Virus record (IMG/VR): IMGVR_UViG_2693429584_000019
Reading direction: 5' to 3' (one strand)
DNA from: a virus
Lineage: Duplodnaviria; Heunggongvirae; Uroviricota; Caudoviricetes
Length of the DNA: 4,267 nucleotides
Shown: positions 1 to 4,267 of the stretch, piece after piece
How the letters are laid out: each line of letters starts with the position of its first letter
Numbering within the stretch: the stretch's first letter is position 1
Notes under the pieces: generated by a model
Database searches by the model: none
What the model was told of the DNA's origin: nothing
The model's input: only the letters and a program-made list of their open reading frames with translations
Position numbers and translations under genes: made by a program

Positions 1-177
1 CTCCTCCGGCAGAAGCAGAAAAAGCTTATTATGCTTCCATCGGAAACGATGATCTGGCAGCCTGAGTTCACAGATAAAATACTCTCCAGGAAACCCGGGG
101 CGGTTCAAAGCAACTTGCAGCCTCTGTTTTGGCACAATCAAACAAAGGGCGTAAGTGACAAATTACAGGGAGAGTAA
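1..177 (+). CDS. 3' end of an unidentified gene entering from the left edge (58 sense codons, stop TAA 175-177), convergent with the integrase; first visible cargo gene of the asnT-linked element
   Basis: Frame 1 on the plus strand is the only frame open from position 1 to the TAA at 175-177. The stop sits in the loop of a terminator-like hairpin (166-187) followed by a T-run. Too short to assign a product. Confidence 0.3.
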   Translation, partial: LLRQKQKKLIMLPSETMIWQPEFTDKILSRKPGAVQSNLQPLFWHNQTKGVSDKLQGE

Positions 178-199
178 AACCTCCCTGCGTTTTTTATTT
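166..199 (+). terminator. Rho-independent terminator candidate, possibly bidirectional between the convergent left-edge ORF and the integrase
   Basis: Perfect 7-bp stem CAGGGAG (166-172) / CTCCCTG (181-187) with 8-nt loop, followed by CGTTTTTTATTT (188-199). On the minus strand the hairpin is followed by TAATTTGT, a weaker U-tract. Confidence 0.55.
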
Positions 200-228
200 A
201 CTACGATTGTCTGCTTGCTGGAAGGCGA

Positions 229-1503
229 TTATTGTTTCTGAGCAAACTCAAACGGCCTGACCATCCCATCCCGGTTTGCATCAAGATAATCTGCCCACCA
301 CTGTAGCATCAACCTTCGCTGCTCAAGATGTTTGGCCTTATGGGTATAGGCAGCACGAACGCTGTTGCTTTCCTTGTGGCTCATTTGAAGTTCTACCGCA
401 TCTTCAGACCATAGCCCTGATTCAATCAGAGCACTACATGCCAGCGTGCGGAAACCATGACCGCAGATGTCCTGCGTGGTGTCATAGCCCATCTTACGTA
501 GCGCTTTATTGATGGTGTTTTCACTCATGGGCTTGAACGAGTCATAACAGCCCGTAAAAATTAACCCCGCCTCATTACCTTCTTCATAGGTAAGCTGGCG
601 GATCTCTTTCAGTATTTTAAGAGCCTGCCTGCAGAGGGGAACGAAGTGCTGGCGTTTCATTTTTGCGCCACGCGTGGAATATTTGACGCGCTCAATCGCT
701 TCACGCTTTTCTGGTATTACCCATAACTTACTGTTGAAGTCGATTTCTGACCATCGTGCATAGCGGAGTTCACTGGAACGAATGAAAATCAACAGATTGA
801 GTTTAATCGCCAGTGTAGTTAGTCCACGACCTTTGTAGGCATCAATACGTTCAAGCAGTAGCGGGATCTCTTCCAGCTCCAGTGCAGGGCGGTGTTCCGT
901 CTCTGGTTTCTGGACAGCGCCTTCCATATCATAGGCCGGATTATGACGCATAAGCTTTTGCTGGACGGCATGACGTAGGATCGCGGTGATGTATTGCTTA
1001 ATCCGCATGGCAATTTCAAGGTAGCCGAGTGTTTCTGCATTTTTAATCGGAACAAGCAGATCACCCGTATCCAGATCTGAAACGTTGCTGTCGCCAATAT
1101 CCGGGAATACATAGGTCTCAAGGCGCTTCCATACCGTATCGGCGTAATCTTCTGACCATTTTGTTTTGGTGGCAAACCAGCTTCTGGCGACGACACGGAA
1201 CGAACGGGTTTTATCCCGCTTTTCCTGCAGCGCTTTTTCATCAGCCAGTTTTTTAGCGTTAGGATCGACTCCCTGAGCAAGCAGCTTTTTTGCTTCATCA
1301 CGTCGTTGTCTGGCATCAGCAAGAGAAACCGCAGGGTAAACACCAATGGAAAACACTTTCTGTTTACCATCGAAGCGATAGCCTAACTGCCAGTATTTTG
1401 AACCATTGGGATGCACAAGAAGGTAGAGACCAAATCCATCAGTGAGCTTGACGGCTTTTTCCGCTGGTCTGGCATTTTTTACTTTAGTATCAGTAAGTGA
1501 CAT
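229..1503 (-). CDS. P4-family (IntA-like) tyrosine integrase, 424 aa, apparently intact
   Basis: Supplied ORF 229-1569 trimmed to the ATG at 1503-1501 (MSLTDTKVKN...), preceded by GGAGGG 7 nt upstream. The product has the P4-family N-terminal region (GLYLLV..., PAVSLADAR) and the C-terminal catalytic region (HGFRT..., NSVRAAYTH...EQRR.M.QWW.DY) from memory of P4 Int. It lies about 180 bp from the 3' end of tRNA-Asn in the same orientation, the usual P4-type arrangement. Confidence 0.9.
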   Translation of the reverse strand: MSLTDTKVKNARPAEKAVKLTDGFGLYLLVHPNGSKYWQLGYRFDGKQKVFSIGVYPAVSLADARQRRDEAKKLLAQGVDPNAKKLADEKALQEKRDKTRSFRVVARSWFATKTKWSEDYADTVWKRLETYVFPDIGDSNVSDLDTGDLLVPIKNAETLGYLEIAMRIKQYITAILRHAVQQKLMRHNPAYDMEGAVQKPETEHRPALELEEIPLLLERIDAYKGRGLTTLAIKLNLLIFIRSSELRYARWSEIDFNSKLWVIPEKREAIERVKYSTRGAKMKRQHFVPLCRQALKILKEIRQLTYEEGNEAGLIFTGCYDSFKPMSENTINKALRKMGYDTTQDICGHGFRTLACSALIESGLWSEDAVELQMSHKESNSVRAAYTHKAKHLEQRRLMLQWWADYLDANRDGMVRPFEFAQKQ

Positions 1504-1520
1504 GACGGTTCCCTCCGCGT

Positions 1521-1567
1521 GCTGGTAAAACGCAAATCGAACCAGCTTTACCAGCATTTTTACCAGC
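1521..1567. repeat. Cluster of GCTGGTAAA / TTTACCAGC repeats between the integrase start and asnT; candidate Int arm-type or autoregulatory binding sites
   Basis: Plus strand: GCTGGTAAAA (1521-1530), ACCAGC (1541-1546), TTTACCAGC (1547-1555), TTTTACCAGC (1558-1567). These give one inverted pair (1521-1530 vs 1558-1567) and three direct copies of the ACCAGC core about 10-12 bp apart. Confidence 0.6.
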
Positions 1568-1644
1568 AAAGTAGTGTGGGTTCGAGCGATTTTTAACGAA
1601 CGAGGGTGAACCTGAAGAAGGGAGTAACCAGTTGATATAAATGC

Positions 1645-1671
1645 AGAAAGCAGACGTCAGTGAACGTCTGC
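1645..1671 (-). terminator. Hairpin immediately 3' of tRNA-Asn, possible tRNA terminator
   Basis: Perfect 8-bp inverted repeat GCAGACGT (1650-1657) / ACGTCTGC (1664-1671) with 6-nt loop. On the minus strand it is followed by TTTCTGCATTTAT, a U-tract of only moderate quality. Confidence 0.4.
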
Positions 1672-1682
1672 TTCCCTTAAAT

Positions 1683-1758
1683 TGGCTCCTCTGACTGGAC
1701 TCGAACCAGTGACATACGGATTAACAGTCCGCCGTTCTACCGACTGAACTACAGAGGA
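1683..1758 (-). tRNA. asnT: tRNA-Asn (anticodon GUU), 76 nt with encoded CCA
   Basis: Minus-strand sequence TCCTCTGTAGTTCAGTCGGTAGAACGGCGGACTGTTAATCCGTATGTCACTGGTTCGAGTCCAGTCAGAGGAGCCA folds as a cloverleaf (7-bp acceptor stem, T-loop TTCGAGT, anticodon loop CTGTTAA). It matches E. coli tRNA-Asn as I recall it. The asnT name rests on position next to mtfA, as in K-12 (serU-mtfA-asnT). Confidence 0.93.
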
Positions 1759-1776
1759 ATCGTGTGAACGGGGCGC

Positions 1777-1805
1777 ATATTACTTAGCGGTACCTTGTCT
1801 GTCAA
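1777..1805 (-). promoter_or_regulatory. sigma70 promoter of asnT
   Basis: Minus strand: -35 TTGACA (1805-1800), 17-bp spacer, -10 TAATAT (1782-1777), then a GC-rich discriminator GCGCCCC typical of stringently controlled tRNA promoters. An AT-rich UP-like region lies upstream (1806-1850). The mature tRNA 5' end is about 12 nt past the predicted start. Confidence 0.65.
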
Positions 1806-1858
1806 CACTAAATTTCATAAGTCATTTCAATTGGTTAATTAATCTGCAAAGTTGTTAA

Positions 1859-2656
1859 TTAATGAACATTCGTCGCCGAAAACGAGTCTGTATCATTAGT
1901 GCGATGTAGTCTCTGCAAAGGATCTTGTTGATAAAATTGGCAGAAACGTTGCCACAATGAAGGGAAACGAGGAGCAAAAAGTTCTGGGGCGCTAAAGAAA
2001 TATTCAGAAAGTACGGCAAAACATTCAGCAGGATCACTGGCAGCATAAGCATCAATGCTCGCCGCATTCTCGCCAACCAATTCGATTTCTTCCTGAATGT
2101 TGTTCATTGCAGCATGAAGATCGTGTTCCCAGCCAGCAACCTCACGCAACGGAATAAAGGGAACTCCGCTGGCGCGATCGCCGTTACGGGTGTCCAGCTT
2201 ATGAGCGACTTCATGAATAATCAGGTTAAAACCAGAAGCATCAAAAGAATCTTGTATATCCAACCAGTTCAAAACGATAGGCCCTTGCTGCCAGCTCTGA
2301 CCTGACTGAACAATACGTTGGTTATGCACCAGACCGATATCGTCTTCCCATTCATCATCGACCACAAATGGCGCAGGATAAATTAAGACTTCATGAAAAC
2401 CATCCAGCCATTCCAGTCCTAACTCCAGAACGGGTAGGCAAAATAGAAGTGCTATCCGGCAGCTTCTTAATGAATCCAGTTCAAAGCCCTGTAAAGGAAC
2501 AAGCCGCTTTTGCTGTAAAAAACGTTCGGCAAGAGTGACTAATTTGCTTTGTTCCTGTTCCGTCAGACACGTTAAAAGGGGGATCGATAGTGCTTCCTGC
2601 CAGGGAAGGGCAGTTTGATGTGCTGATTCTTGTACTTTCCAGGGCCACTTAATCAT
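1859..2656 (-). CDS. mtfA: MtfA (Mlc titration factor A; zinc-dependent peptidase with HExxH motif), 265 aa
   Basis: Supplied ORF 1859-2695 trimmed to the ATG at 2656-2654 ([11 protein letters not shown]...), stop TAA at 1861-1859. Contains the HEVAH zinc-binding motif and matches the E. coli MtfA (YeeI) sequence as I recall it. The divergent serU and downstream asnT fit K-12 synteny. Confidence 0.9.
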
Positions 2657-2705
2657 CGTTTTGCTCGCAAACTCGTCACTTGAACAAAATTGCACGGACA
2701 GGGAC

Positions 2706-2714
2706 TGTTAAAAT
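2706..2714 (+). promoter_or_regulatory. Candidate extended -10 element (TGtTAAAAT) for serU
   Basis: TG at 2706-2707 and TAAAAT at 2709-2714, 36 nt upstream of the tRNA 5' end. No good -35 at 16-18 bp spacing (TTGAAC at 2680-2685 is 23 bp away), so the call is weak. The 93-bp mtfA-serU intergenic region must also hold the mtfA promoter. Confidence 0.3.
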
Positions 2715-2749
2715 GCCAAATTTCCTGGCATCATGGCAACCATCTGAAC

Positions 2750-2839
2750 GGAGAGATGCCGGAGCGGCTGAACGGACCGGTCTCGAAAACCGGAGTGGGG
2801 GCAACTCCACCGGGGGTTCAAATCCCCCTCTCTCCGCCA
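2750..2839 (+). tRNA. serU: tRNA-Ser (anticodon CGA), 90 nt class II tRNA with long variable arm and encoded CCA
   Basis: GGAGAGATGCCGGAGCGGCTGAACGGACCGGTCTCGAAAACCGGAGTGGGGGCAACTCCACCGGGGGTTCAAATCCCCCTCTCTCCGCCA. Anticodon stem CCGGT/ACCGG, loop CTCGAAA with anticodon CGA at 2784-2786, T-arm GGGGG-TTCAAAT-CCCCC, 7-bp acceptor stem. Divergent from mtfA as serU is in K-12. Confidence 0.92.
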
Positions 2840-2883
2840 AAATTCAATCACTTATACATCATTAAGTCAGTGACAAAAATCAC

Positions 2884-2931
2884 ACTTGGAATTACTTGGA
2901 ATTACTTGGAATATTTTCTTGGAATATTTTC
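2884..2931. repeat. Tandem direct repeats spanning the stop codon of the lambda-type integrase: ACTTGGAATT x about 3 (2884-2912) overlapping TTGGAATATTTTC x 2 (2906-2931); candidate arm-type Int binding sites of the att region
   Basis: Read directly. The TTGGAAT core occurs four times (2886, 2896, 2906, 2919). The two perfect 13-bp units encode the integrase C-terminus (ENIPRKYSK); the 10-bp units overlap the TAA stop (2904-2902). The array lies 45-92 bp past the serU 3' end. Confidence 0.8.
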
Positions 2932-3927
2932 AGGTAACGGGACATCAAGTGTCGGTGAAACTTTAACCTTCCTGTCATAGATTAGCACTTGCCCCTCGGT
3001 TTTGTGACCAGAGAAAAGTTGCTTATCCCGACTGCTTCCTTCATAGTCTGAAATTCCTTTCGCCTTCAGATCATGAAAGGTGAAGTCGGTTAAAATACCT
3101 GAAATTTTGCCTGCGCGATTTCTTGCTTCTACCCACATTTCGTTAAAGCCTTTGTACATATATCGGTTGCCGTATTGATTACTGATTACATAGGCGGATG
3201 TTGGTAACTGTTTTGCTTTTTCGATCGCCGCCTGTAATCGTGGACTCCATGCTTTTATCTGTTTTTTTCCTGTTTTCCCTTGCTGGATAAAGATTCCGTC
3301 GTTTCCAATCTGCTCCCATTTCAGCGATAACACATCGGAAACCCTCGCTGCACACAGATAGGCAATTTCCATTGCGATAAAAACAGGAAGAGGTGCAACG
3401 CTTAATACTGCCTGGTATTCTTTGTCGGTTACATATCGTTCGCGGTTTTTGGCCTTGAATTTACTTACACCTGCACATGGGTTAGCCTTCACGTACCCTC
3501 GCTCATACCCCCAACTGTAAACGCGGGACATACTGCTTTTTTCATGGTTGGCTTGCGTTTTACTCTGTTCCCCTCTCTTGTCCATGTATCGACGGATGTG
3601 TTCTGGTTTTATGGAATCTGCCGGCACCTTACCGAATACGGCAAGCAACTTTTTTTGATGTTGCAGATAATCTTTTTGTGTTCTTGGACTGAGGTCACTG
3701 TAATAGGCGCTGGCGAGGAATTTTTCCCACAAGCGACCGAATGTCATTGCACGATCGCGATTATTTACAGTTTCCTCATACTTTTTCCATAAAGCAGCTA
3801 AACCATCCTTGATGGCGGTTAGTGTGACAGATTCTCTGGATGTTGGTTTCCATACATAACTATATTTATTTGGGTATACATTTGGAGGTAGTTTTTCGTG
3901 TTCAGGATTTTTCCTTCGTCTTCCCAT
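2902..3927 (-). CDS. int: Lambda-type tyrosine integrase, 341 aa, apparently intact
   Basis: ORF with ATG at 3927-3925 (MGRRRKNPEHEKLPPNVY..., compare lambda Int MGRRRSHERRDLPPNLY). The C-terminal catalytic region has H-x-L-K...GH-K...LIYDR with a candidate catalytic Tyr. The gene is transcribed toward the serU 3' end, the lambda-like int-att arrangement. Confidence 0.9.
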   Translation of the reverse strand: MGRRRKNPEHEKLPPNVYPNKYSYVWKPTSRESVTLTAIKDGLAALWKKYEETVNNRDRAMTFGRLWEKFLASAYYSDLSPRTQKDYLQHQKKLLAVFGKVPADSIKPEHIRRYMDKRGEQSKTQANHEKSSMSRVYSWGYERGYVKANPCAGVSKFKAKNRERYVTDKEYQAVLSVAPLPVFIAMEIAYLCAARVSDVLSLKWEQIGNDGIFIQQGKTGKKQIKAWSPRLQAAIEKAKQLPTSAYVISNQYGNRYMYKGFNEMWVEARNRAGKISGILTDFTFHDLKAKGISDYEGSSRDKQLFSGHKTEGQVLIYDRKVKVSPTLDVPLPENIPRKYSK

Positions 3928-4130
3928 TAGATTGCACCAAAATTCGGCTCTACCTCGCGTGGTGGTAAAGTTTTATTGCAGGTAAATAGATCCCGGCTGA
4001 CAATCGGTTTGCCACTACGATTGGTATAGAACGGAAGCCCGTTTTCCGTTAACCATTTTCGCTGGTGGCTTGCATATTTGCAGCCCGTTAATATTAGCAA
4101 TTCATCTTCGGTTAAAAATAAGTTGCTCAT
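3927..4130 (-). CDS. Small Xis-like protein (putative excisionase / recombination directionality factor, DUF4224-like), 67 aa
   Basis: ATG at 4130-4128. Its stop TAA (3929-3927) overlaps the integrase ATG (3927-3925) by 1 nt (minus strand ...CTAATG...), indicating translational coupling. The size, the position directly upstream of int, and the LTxxELxxLTG...WLxxNGxPF pattern resemble small prophage proteins found upstream of integrases. Family assignment is from memory, not a search. Confidence 0.6.
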   Translation of the reverse strand: MSNLFLTEDELLILTGCKYASHQRKWLTENGLPFYTNRSGKPIVSRDLFTCNKTLPPREVEPNFGAI

Positions 4131-4147
4131 AGCTATATCTCATAACC

Positions 4148-4173
4148 GCCGCTAACTATATACGGTTAGCGGC
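4148..4173. promoter_or_regulatory. Perfect 9-bp inverted repeat GCCGCTAAC-N8-GTTAGCGGC upstream of the xis-like gene; candidate operator
   Basis: GCCGCTAAC (4148-4156) and GTTAGCGGC (4165-4173) are exact reverse complements around an AT-rich 8-bp spacer TATATACG, 18-43 bp upstream of the xis ATG. No U-tract follows on either strand, so an operator is more likely than a terminator. Confidence 0.4.
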
Positions 4174-4267
4174 AATTAGGGTTGAACATTAAAAATCAGC
4201 CTGACTCGGGATCAGTTTTTGCCAGATAACTGAAACGTATTTTGCCTGGTAACGGGCGTCATCAAGT

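Follow-up and report, generated by a model that had tools for sequence, protein, structure and literature searches.

The serU-mtfA-asnT segment of a probable enterohemorrhagic Escherichia coli O111 chromosome between a lambdoid prophage and an island remnant

Genes and features of the window

The 4,267-nt stretch of DNA analyzed here (IMG/VR record IMGVR_UViG_2693429584_000019; "the window" hereafter means this whole stretch) carries the tRNA genes asnT and serU, the protein-coding gene mtfA between them, and an integrase gene beyond the 3' end of each tRNA gene (Table 1). The window is 99.5% identical to the chromosomes of enterohemorrhagic Escherichia coli (EHEC) O111:H8 and O111:H-. Homology to E. 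coli K-12, where the gene order is yodB-serU-mtfA-asnT-yeeJ, is restricted to positions 1679-2855, and mtfA is the sole core protein gene that remains. We consider it very probable that the window derives from an EHEC O111 chromosome and covers its serU-mtfA-asnT segment, which lies between two unrelated integrated elements that differ in their decay: a lambdoid prophage at serU and a dead island remnant at asnT.

Much of this layout had already been recognized in an initial annotation. That annotation marked unrelated integrase-bearing elements at the two adjacent tRNA genes, assigned a P4-type integrase to the asnT side and a lambda-type integrase with an excisionase gene to the serU side, and placed a core islet of about 1.2 kb at approximately 1683-2839. 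It also named yodB and yeeJ as the K-12 neighbors on the serU and asnT sides, respectively. The positions of the integrase genes, their domain matches and the match to lambda Int, the limits of K-12 homology, and the K-12 gene order all agree with these points.

Occurrence counts were taken over 5,426 complete E. coli genomes. At least 80% of the window is present in 57 of these genomes, and none carries a one-piece match to all of it; sister strains vary by IS1203 insertions in or near both integrase genes. Everything outside positions 1-4267, including the right-hand attachment site (attR) of the prophage, the prophage content, and the rest of the island remnant, was read from relatives rather than from the window's own strain. 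The content described beyond the window is thus presumptive for that strain.

Table 1. Features of the window and of the adjoining island segment in the O111 relative 8B
Feature	Position	Strand	Basis
IS1203/IS629-type (IS3 family) right end	1-107	+	99% identical to annotated IS1203 copies of O111 8B
Island DNA between insertion sequence and integrase gene: 3' remnant of gene for 83-aa hypothetical protein, plus hairpin	108-228	+	Collinear with 8B (L001) from 20001 onward
P4-type tyrosine integrase, 424 aa	229-1503	-	Pfam Arm-DNA-bind_3 (2.3e-28), Phage_int_M, Phage_integrase; WP_001345280.1 in relatives
Terminator-like hairpin, island-borne, 14-bp stem, directly downstream of asnT	1645-1676	-	Hairpin prediction
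attL core of asnT island, 25-bp 3' end of Asn tRNA gene (GTTCGAGTCCAGTCAGAGGAGCCAA)	1682-1706	-	Direct repeat bounding the ECOR29 island
asnT, tRNA-Asn(GTT)	1683-1758	-	ARAGORN and Rfam
mtfA (DgsA/Mlc anti-repressor, peptidase M90)	1859-2656	-	NCBIfam equivalog, E=2.5e-163; Pfam Peptidase_M90
serU, tRNA-Ser(CGA)	2750-2839	+	ARAGORN and Rfam
attL identity block of serU prophage, 62 bp common to attR with 2 mismatches	2778-2839	+	attL/attR/attB alignment
P' arm repeats: ACTTGGAATT x2.9 overlapping CTTGGAATATTTT x2.1	2884-2931	+	Tandem Repeats Finder
Lambda-type tyrosine integrase, 341 aa	2902-3927	-	Pfam Phage_integrase; convergent with serU
Excisionase-like gene, 67 aa, overlaps integrase gene	3927-4130	-	Pfam DUF4224, 2.8e-16; PHROG 1266 "excisionase", E=1.7e-21
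Prophage exonuclease (RecE/exo VIII-like), 3' end, continues off window	4189-4267	-	Collinear with the 2,472-nt "exonuclease" coding sequence of 8B and 8E
Type I CBASS adjoining the asnT-island integrase	L001 17182-19097 (8B), about 1-3 kb left of window

The prophage at serU and its attachment sites

Among solved structures, the best match of the integrase at serU (serU Int) is lambda Int (1Z1B; E=7.9e-13, phmmer). The alignment begins at residue 1 (MGRRR...LPPN.Y), which points to the presence of an N-terminal arm-type DNA-binding domain. The protein is 58.7% identical to the Int of Salmonella phage ST64B, and its 341 residues compare with 329 in ST64B and 336 in phage mEp390. Residues R195, K218, H285, K288, H308, and Y317 are invariant between serU Int and the proteins of these two viable phages.

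In all of the genomes examined, the Prokaryotic Genome Annotation Pipeline (PGAP) tags this integrase as "frameshifted", each time at a length of about 1,050 nt (loci L002, L009, L010, and L015). Translation gives the 341-aa open reading frame (ORF) with either two or three of the repeat units found at the end of the gene, and a one-unit version would continue to a TGA at 2867 to yield 346 residues ending in ...KYSKCDFCH. Because this variable tail sits within the arm-site repeats discussed below (window 2867-2904), the flag is confined to the five final codons, past the catalytic Tyr317. We rejected the idea of a defective integrase, as no strain shows the flag at another length and nothing but these five codons is affected. 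Judged by its reading frame and conserved catalytic positions, serU Int is full length, and the ORF of the asnT integrase is likewise uninterrupted, as the initial annotation had stated for both proteins. The "frameshifted" label should therefore be corrected to a variable five-codon tail.

The adjacent 67-aa protein is named here after the genes at the homologous position in ST64B and mEp390, so that the term excisionase, like the PHROG label, rests on annotation. A sequence search of the PDB with this protein gave no significant match. The module formed by the integrase and excisionase genes (int-xis) occurs in 1,155 of the 5,426 genomes (~21%). In close relatives, the prophage is approximately 50 kb long. 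Reading rightward from serU in 8E, its genes follow a lambdoid order of exo, dicB, replication genes, Q-region tRNAs, lysis, head, and tail, and then nleC, which encodes a type III secretion system effector.

The integrase is interrupted by IS1203 or partly deleted in many O111 strains. The sister strains 11128 (O111:H-; L006) and 2009C-3675 (L005) carry distinct IS1203-associated lesions at both elements. Part of the prophage int gene has been lost in each of them, and 2009C-3675 additionally lacks xis and part of exo. The window is an example, for EHEC genomics, of the uneven erosion of both elements by IS1203/IS629 among sister O111 strains.

In 8E, attR lies at approximately 31180-31240 of the right-hand locus (L004), about 50 kb from serU, and is followed by yodB. 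It is a partial copy of serU that runs from the anticodon stem to the CCA end. A distal repeat of the serU 3' end had been predicted to the right of the window, and it was indeed found in this near-identical strain. A search of L004 with a long pattern composed of the serU 3' end and the downstream window sequence gave no match because the phage-side and host-side flanks differ; attR was found by direct reading of the sequence.

When the attL of the window, the attR of 8E, and the attB of K-12 are aligned, the block of identity starts at window position 2778, in the anticodon stem. The variable arm GTAGGGGCAACTCTAC is common to attR and K-12, whereas serU of the window has GTGGGGGCAACTCCAC, with a compensatory G:C for A:T at 2797/2808 (G2797 and C2808 in the window). 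Given a K-12-type arm at attR and a phage-type arm in the window, the 3' portion of the window's serU is phage-derived. We infer that the crossover occurred within 2778-2796, in the anticodon stem-loop. The serU gene of the window is a hybrid with a chromosomal 5' part and a prophage-derived 3' two-thirds extending up to the CCA. The lysogens O157:H7 EDL933 and strain A31 have the same attL with its phage-type arm, and in ST64B the equivalent tRNA-Ser(CGA) segment lies in a genuine attP of the circular genome. Annotations of serU in such lysogens could be amended to describe a phage/host hybrid.

Four CTTGGAAT sites lie in the P' arm of the window (2885, 2895, 2905, and 2918), where 0.18 would be expected by chance, and the int stop codon (2902-2904) falls within the repeat array. 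The 42 kb of L004 contain only two copies of CTTGGAAT, one per strand, both no more than 120 bp upstream of the attR core. At the corresponding position before the 3' end of its int gene, ST64B has three phased direct repeats, TGAGAAAA, that are unlike CTTGGAAT. Because of the arm-flanking positions, the ST64B repeats, and the lambda-like N-terminal domain of Int, the CTTGGAAT repeats (four in P' and two in P) are probable candidates for the arm-type sites bound by this domain.

The number of P' sites varies. There are three in O111 8B and 8E, EDL933, and A31, and four in the window alone, through one extra 10-nt unit, ACTTGGAATT (2884-2893). This unit, which shifts the other P' sites one helical turn from the core, may have arisen by genuine slippage or be an artifact of assembly. 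Such variation is what replication slippage predicts, and the arm-site assignment is drawn from sequence pattern. Alternatively, the CTTGGAAT/ACTTGGAATT array might take no part in recombination and simply be a tandem stretch, prone to slippage, at the end of int. We regard this as improbable. Apart from copy number, the array is unchanged between prophages with int-xis genes that are 7% divergent, the spacing of CTTGGAAT is about one helical turn, and the only two other copies in 42 kb are both in the P arm next to attR. In addition, the ST64B repeats occupy the same position despite their different sequence, and the N-terminal domain of Int is of the lambda-like, arm-binding type.

With the arm-type assignment retained, a mechanism can be proposed for the serU side. 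The lambda-type Int, aided by the DUF4224 excisionase, would recombine an attP whose serU copy spans the anticodon stem to the CCA. Strand exchange in the anticodon stem-loop (2778-2796) would give the working serU gene a 3' portion from the phage and leave the host's own 3' fragment at attR beside yodB. As int, xis, and attL appear intact, excision of the serU prophage is plausible if attR exists in the window's strain. The initial annotation had suggested that either element might still be mobile, and the attR of 8E keeps this suggestion alive for the prophage.

Several observations weigh against this account. The second catalytic arginine (R311 of lambda Int) is Lys288 in all three integrases compared (window, ST64B, and mEp390), although the invariance of this lysine in two viable phages, ST64B and mEp390, leads us to regard it as a likely family trait. 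The prophage in relatives carries IS66-family and IS1203 insertions and has frameshifted tail genes, and the serU prophage may excise yet form no infectious particles. Finally, the relatives used beyond positions 1-4267, though 99.5% identical, differ in IS insertions and deletions, and the window's strain may differ from them in the same ways.

The closest comparisons for this element are with other phages and prophages. The serU prophage of EDL933, which we take to be CP-933U/Sp14, shares the attL, the phage-type 3' portion of serU, and the CTTGGAAT sites, and its int-xis region is 92.6% identical at the nucleotide level. In EDL933, however, asnT is empty with yeeJ adjacent, there are three CTTGGAAT sites rather than four, and the effector cargo differs, with nleC being found in the O111 relatives. 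The annotation of ST64B itself cites "CP-933U; AAG57039" as similar. ST64B resembles the window in the length class of Int, in the adjacent excisionase gene, and in an attP that runs from the tRNA-Ser(CGA) anticodon stem to the CCA and continues into phased repeats. It differs in its repeat (TGAGAAAA rather than CTTGGAAT), in a diverged tRNA segment, and in being an isolated phage genome, whereas the window holds a prophage end.

Phage lambda likewise has a bipartite Int with an arm-binding N-terminal domain and a catalytic domain, int-xis beside attL, and clustered direct repeats in P' near the int stop codon with more in P; the corresponding sites of the window are putative. The differences from lambda include a tRNA gene as the target instead of the gal-bio attB, an identity block of 62 bp rather than 15 bp, the lysine in place of R311, and a DUF4224 excisionase that does not belong by sequence to the lambda Xis family. 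We also considered ON470580 and ON470583, whose Int proteins are 99.4-99.7% identical to serU Int, as a free-phage source of attP. They were rejected because they are prophage predictions that run into host DNA. These two records ("Escherichia phage ... partial genome"; L007 and L008) extend into serU, mtfA, asnT, the integrase of the high-pathogenicity island (HPI), and ybtS, and are not packaged phage genomes.

The island remnant at asnT and the adjoining IS1203 end

The integrase on the other side of the islet lies downstream of the asnT 3' end and is co-oriented with the tRNA gene. Integrases of this type occur in 318 of the genomes, and the protein is 49% identical to the HPI integrase and 27% identical to the integrase of the CFT073 serU island. 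The arrangement resembles the Yersinia HPI, in which a P4-type integrase likewise follows asnT directly in the same orientation and the att core is formed by the tRNA 3' end. We nevertheless rejected an HPI at asnT, given the 49% identity of the integrases and the absence of ybt genes from the O111 relatives.

A full-length relative is available in strain ECOR29, where a 22.4-kb island with the window-type integrase sits at asnV beside nac, bounded by the 25-bp GTTCGAGTCCAGTCAGAGGAGCCAA repeat (L013 27418-49823). The 3' ends of the four Asn-tRNA genes are identical, and the window-type integrase is evidently not confined to a single one of them. The flank of the ECOR29 copy at asnV is identical to that directly downstream of asnT in the window, where the strong hairpin lies. 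The native asnT terminator has been displaced there, and the island seems to supply its own terminator for the tRNA transcript. A second terminator-like hairpin (166-187) lies between the insertion sequence (IS) and the integrase gene.

In O111 8B and 8E, asnT is separated from a truncated yeeL by 12.2 kb of foreign DNA, and all of yeeJ and part of yeeL are gone. The left junction of the island, in yeeL, is an illegitimate joint with neither an IS nor an att repeat. A direct repeat of the asnT 3' end had been anticipated to the left, and here the expectation failed. No second copy was found in the 20 kb left of asnT in 8B when up to 3 mismatches were allowed, nor is there one in the other O111 relatives.

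The genes of this segment in 8B and 8E comprise int, the gene for the 83-aa hypothetical protein, a CD-NTase cyclase, a split 4TM effector, pilV, a type IV pilin gene, traD, a frameshifted mobQ, and a few small genes. The cyclase belongs to a type I cyclic oligonucleotide-based antiphage signaling system (CBASS) and is intact in the relatives (PADLOC PDLC00802, E=2.8e-149). The effector is split into three ORFs that cover profile positions 1-90, 95-218, and 217-305, and RefSeq names them as three "S-4TM family" proteins. With its effector split in three, the type I CBASS is therefore dead.

The TcpC-island family has a backbone of genes in conserved order (pilV, pilin, traD, mobQ, lipoprotein, RepL, H-NS, and DUF6387). 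The order int, variable slot, pilV, pilin, traD, mobQ, lipoprotein is shared with the TcpC islands PAI-CFT073-serU and PAI VII-536, and the PilV and lipoprotein of the O111 asnT island each have 95% protein identity to those of PAI-CFT073-serU. The proximal half of this backbone is present in 8B and 8E, outside the window, and the distal half is absent. Compared with the TcpC islands, the O111 element has an integrase of only 27% identity, an Asn-tRNA target, no tcpC, no RepL/H-NS half, and no attR.

These data suggest that the asnT side is the attL end of a mobilizable island with a P4-type integrase specific for Asn-tRNA genes and a TcpC-island backbone. The O111 copy is dead, having lost its distal half, attR, and the neighboring yeeJ, with mobQ frameshifted and the CBASS reduced to a pseudogene. 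Although the integrase ORF is intact, no partner site is left for it, and the asnT element should therefore be unable to excise. By comparison with its relatives, the O111 asnT element is a truncated, non-excisable remnant (12 kb at most) of a known family of mobilizable islands. Annotations should not count its orphan integrase as evidence for a mobile island.

A more generous view would take both elements for intact islands that could still be mobile, each bringing substantial, possibly novel cargo to its side of the window. Both integrase ORFs are uninterrupted, the serU prophage of 8E has both att sites, and ECOR29 has a full-length asnT-type island with both repeats. Yet none of the O111 relatives has the distal asnT repeat, the island is truncated into yeeL with the loss of yeeJ, mobQ and the CBASS effector gene are pseudogenes, the window starts inside IS1203, and the cargo found in relatives is of known kinds, so we judge this view extremely unlikely. 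The initial annotation's proposal of mobility thus falls for the asnT element, which lacks the distal repeat (an absence that the annotation had itself named as refuting), has lost sequence from yeeJ and yeeL, and carries a frameshifted mobQ. Its proposal of cargo on both sides holds for the prophage to the right, whereas IS1203 lies to the left, with at best a decayed remnant behind it. The further suggestion that an undescribed system might reside in this cargo was not borne out, as the relatives carry a broken type I CBASS, remnants of a relaxase and a type IV pilus, and a lambdoid prophage with nleC.

The IS1203 end at the start of the window had gone unremarked, and annotation of the first 107 bases should be corrected accordingly. 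Positions 1-65 hold the 3' end of the transposase gene orfB, whose translation ends in ...AYYASIGNDDLAA* and whose stop codon (TGA) occupies 63-65; position 107 is the last of the terminal inverted repeat. The insertion interrupts the gene for the 83-aa hypothetical protein, 121 bp beyond the asnT-island integrase; an intact, 252-nt version of this gene is annotated in 8B (L001). Because positions 1-107 are the IS1203 end, the 48-aa ORF at 31-177 is a chimera of IS and island DNA rather than cargo.

The position of this IS bears on how much of the island survives in the window's own strain. In O111:H- strain 11128, the arrangement is yeeL'-IS1203-int-asnT and all of the island cargo has been deleted, whereas 2009C-3675 has a deletion from mobQ to pilV. 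The asnT element of the window's strain might likewise be a lone integrase without cargo, produced by an IS1203-mediated deletion to yeeL' as in 11128. The window also has IS1203 immediately past int, and IS1203/IS629-mediated deletions are frequent in the O111 lineage. Against this, the IS junction of 11128 is nearer to int (at about window 189-190 by annotated coordinates), which indicates a separate insertion event. Moreover, the IS/island junction at 107/108 is shared by a single complete genome, that of O111:H8 2009C-3675, which retains the CBASS and a pilV remnant behind the IS. We therefore regard a lone integrase as rather unlikely and favor a decayed remnant behind IS1203.

The slot between int and pilV, which lies outside the window, differs in each strain. 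It holds a gene for a 583-aa protein of unknown function in ECOR29 (L011 17948-19699), one for an unrelated 606-aa unknown in CFT073 (L014 5847-7667), an ATP-grasp peptide-maturase-like gene and two unknowns in YD786 (L012 17207-19312), and a DNA methyltransferase gene in a Tanzanian isolate (L010 1-1312). None of the slot genes of these four strains matched PADLOC models. They are candidates for uncharacterized defense or competition cargo. A tentative reading, which we hold to be rather unlikely, is that the asnT element belongs to a modular TcpC-backbone family that swaps integrases between adjacent tRNA genes and keeps a hypervariable, defense-type slot beside int. The swapped targets would be serU in uropathogenic E. 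coli (UPEC) and asnT or asnV elsewhere. If this were true, unannotated slot genes of other strains could be undescribed anti-phage systems.

Occupancy of the two tRNA genes in other strains

A K-12-like uninterrupted junction is present at serU in 3,856 of the 5,426 genomes and at asnT in 2,675, leaving approximately 29% and 51%, respectively, without one. Double occupancy was seen directly in CFT073 (TcpC island and HPI) and in ON470580 and ON470583 (window-type prophage integrase and HPI). A serU island at serU and the HPI at asnT, separated by an "inter-PAI region A" of about 1 kb, have been described as a recombination hotspot (Messerer et al. 2017; PMC5521745). A 2020 review tabulates both pathogenicity islands (PAIs) side by side for strains 536 and CFT073 (PMC7545054). 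In addition, serU has been listed as an insertion site of Shiga toxin phages (PMC8065619). A literature search for defense-hotspot papers that name mtfA or asnT returned nothing relevant.

The window resembles UPEC strains 536 and CFT073 in having two unrelated integrase-bearing elements at serU and asnT with only serU-mtfA-asnT (~1-1.6 kb) between them. In the UPEC strains, serU is occupied by a 22-27-kb TcpC island and asnT by the HPI, whereas in the window the occupant of serU is a lambdoid prophage and that of asnT is a truncated relative of the TcpC backbone with a different integrase. The double hotspot described in the initial annotation has thus already been published for 536 and CFT073. 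Double tRNA occupation around an islet of about 1 kb is known, the serU-mtfA-asnT segment is a textbook hotspot for insertion at tRNA genes, and the window adds one further pairing of element types that are already known.

In PAI-CFT073-serU (L014 4513-26564), the integrase gene is at the end distant from serU, beside zinT, and yodB is not annotated. RefSeq annotates a MobQ relaxase, TraD, PilV, and RepL in this island. This contrasts with the statement of Messerer et al. (2017; PMC5521745) that the serU island is without mobilization or transfer genes.

Within the core islet, the NCBIfam equivalog match of mtfA spans residues 14-278 of a longer ORF, and a promoter-like site of asnT is located at 1805-1777. 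A sub-threshold Rfam match to RF04351 (plastid psbI-rps4 3' UTR; 38.6 bits versus a gathering score of 68) lies antisense to serU at 2785-2836 on the minus strand. This match is almost certainly an artifact of tRNA-Ser-like sequence in that model.

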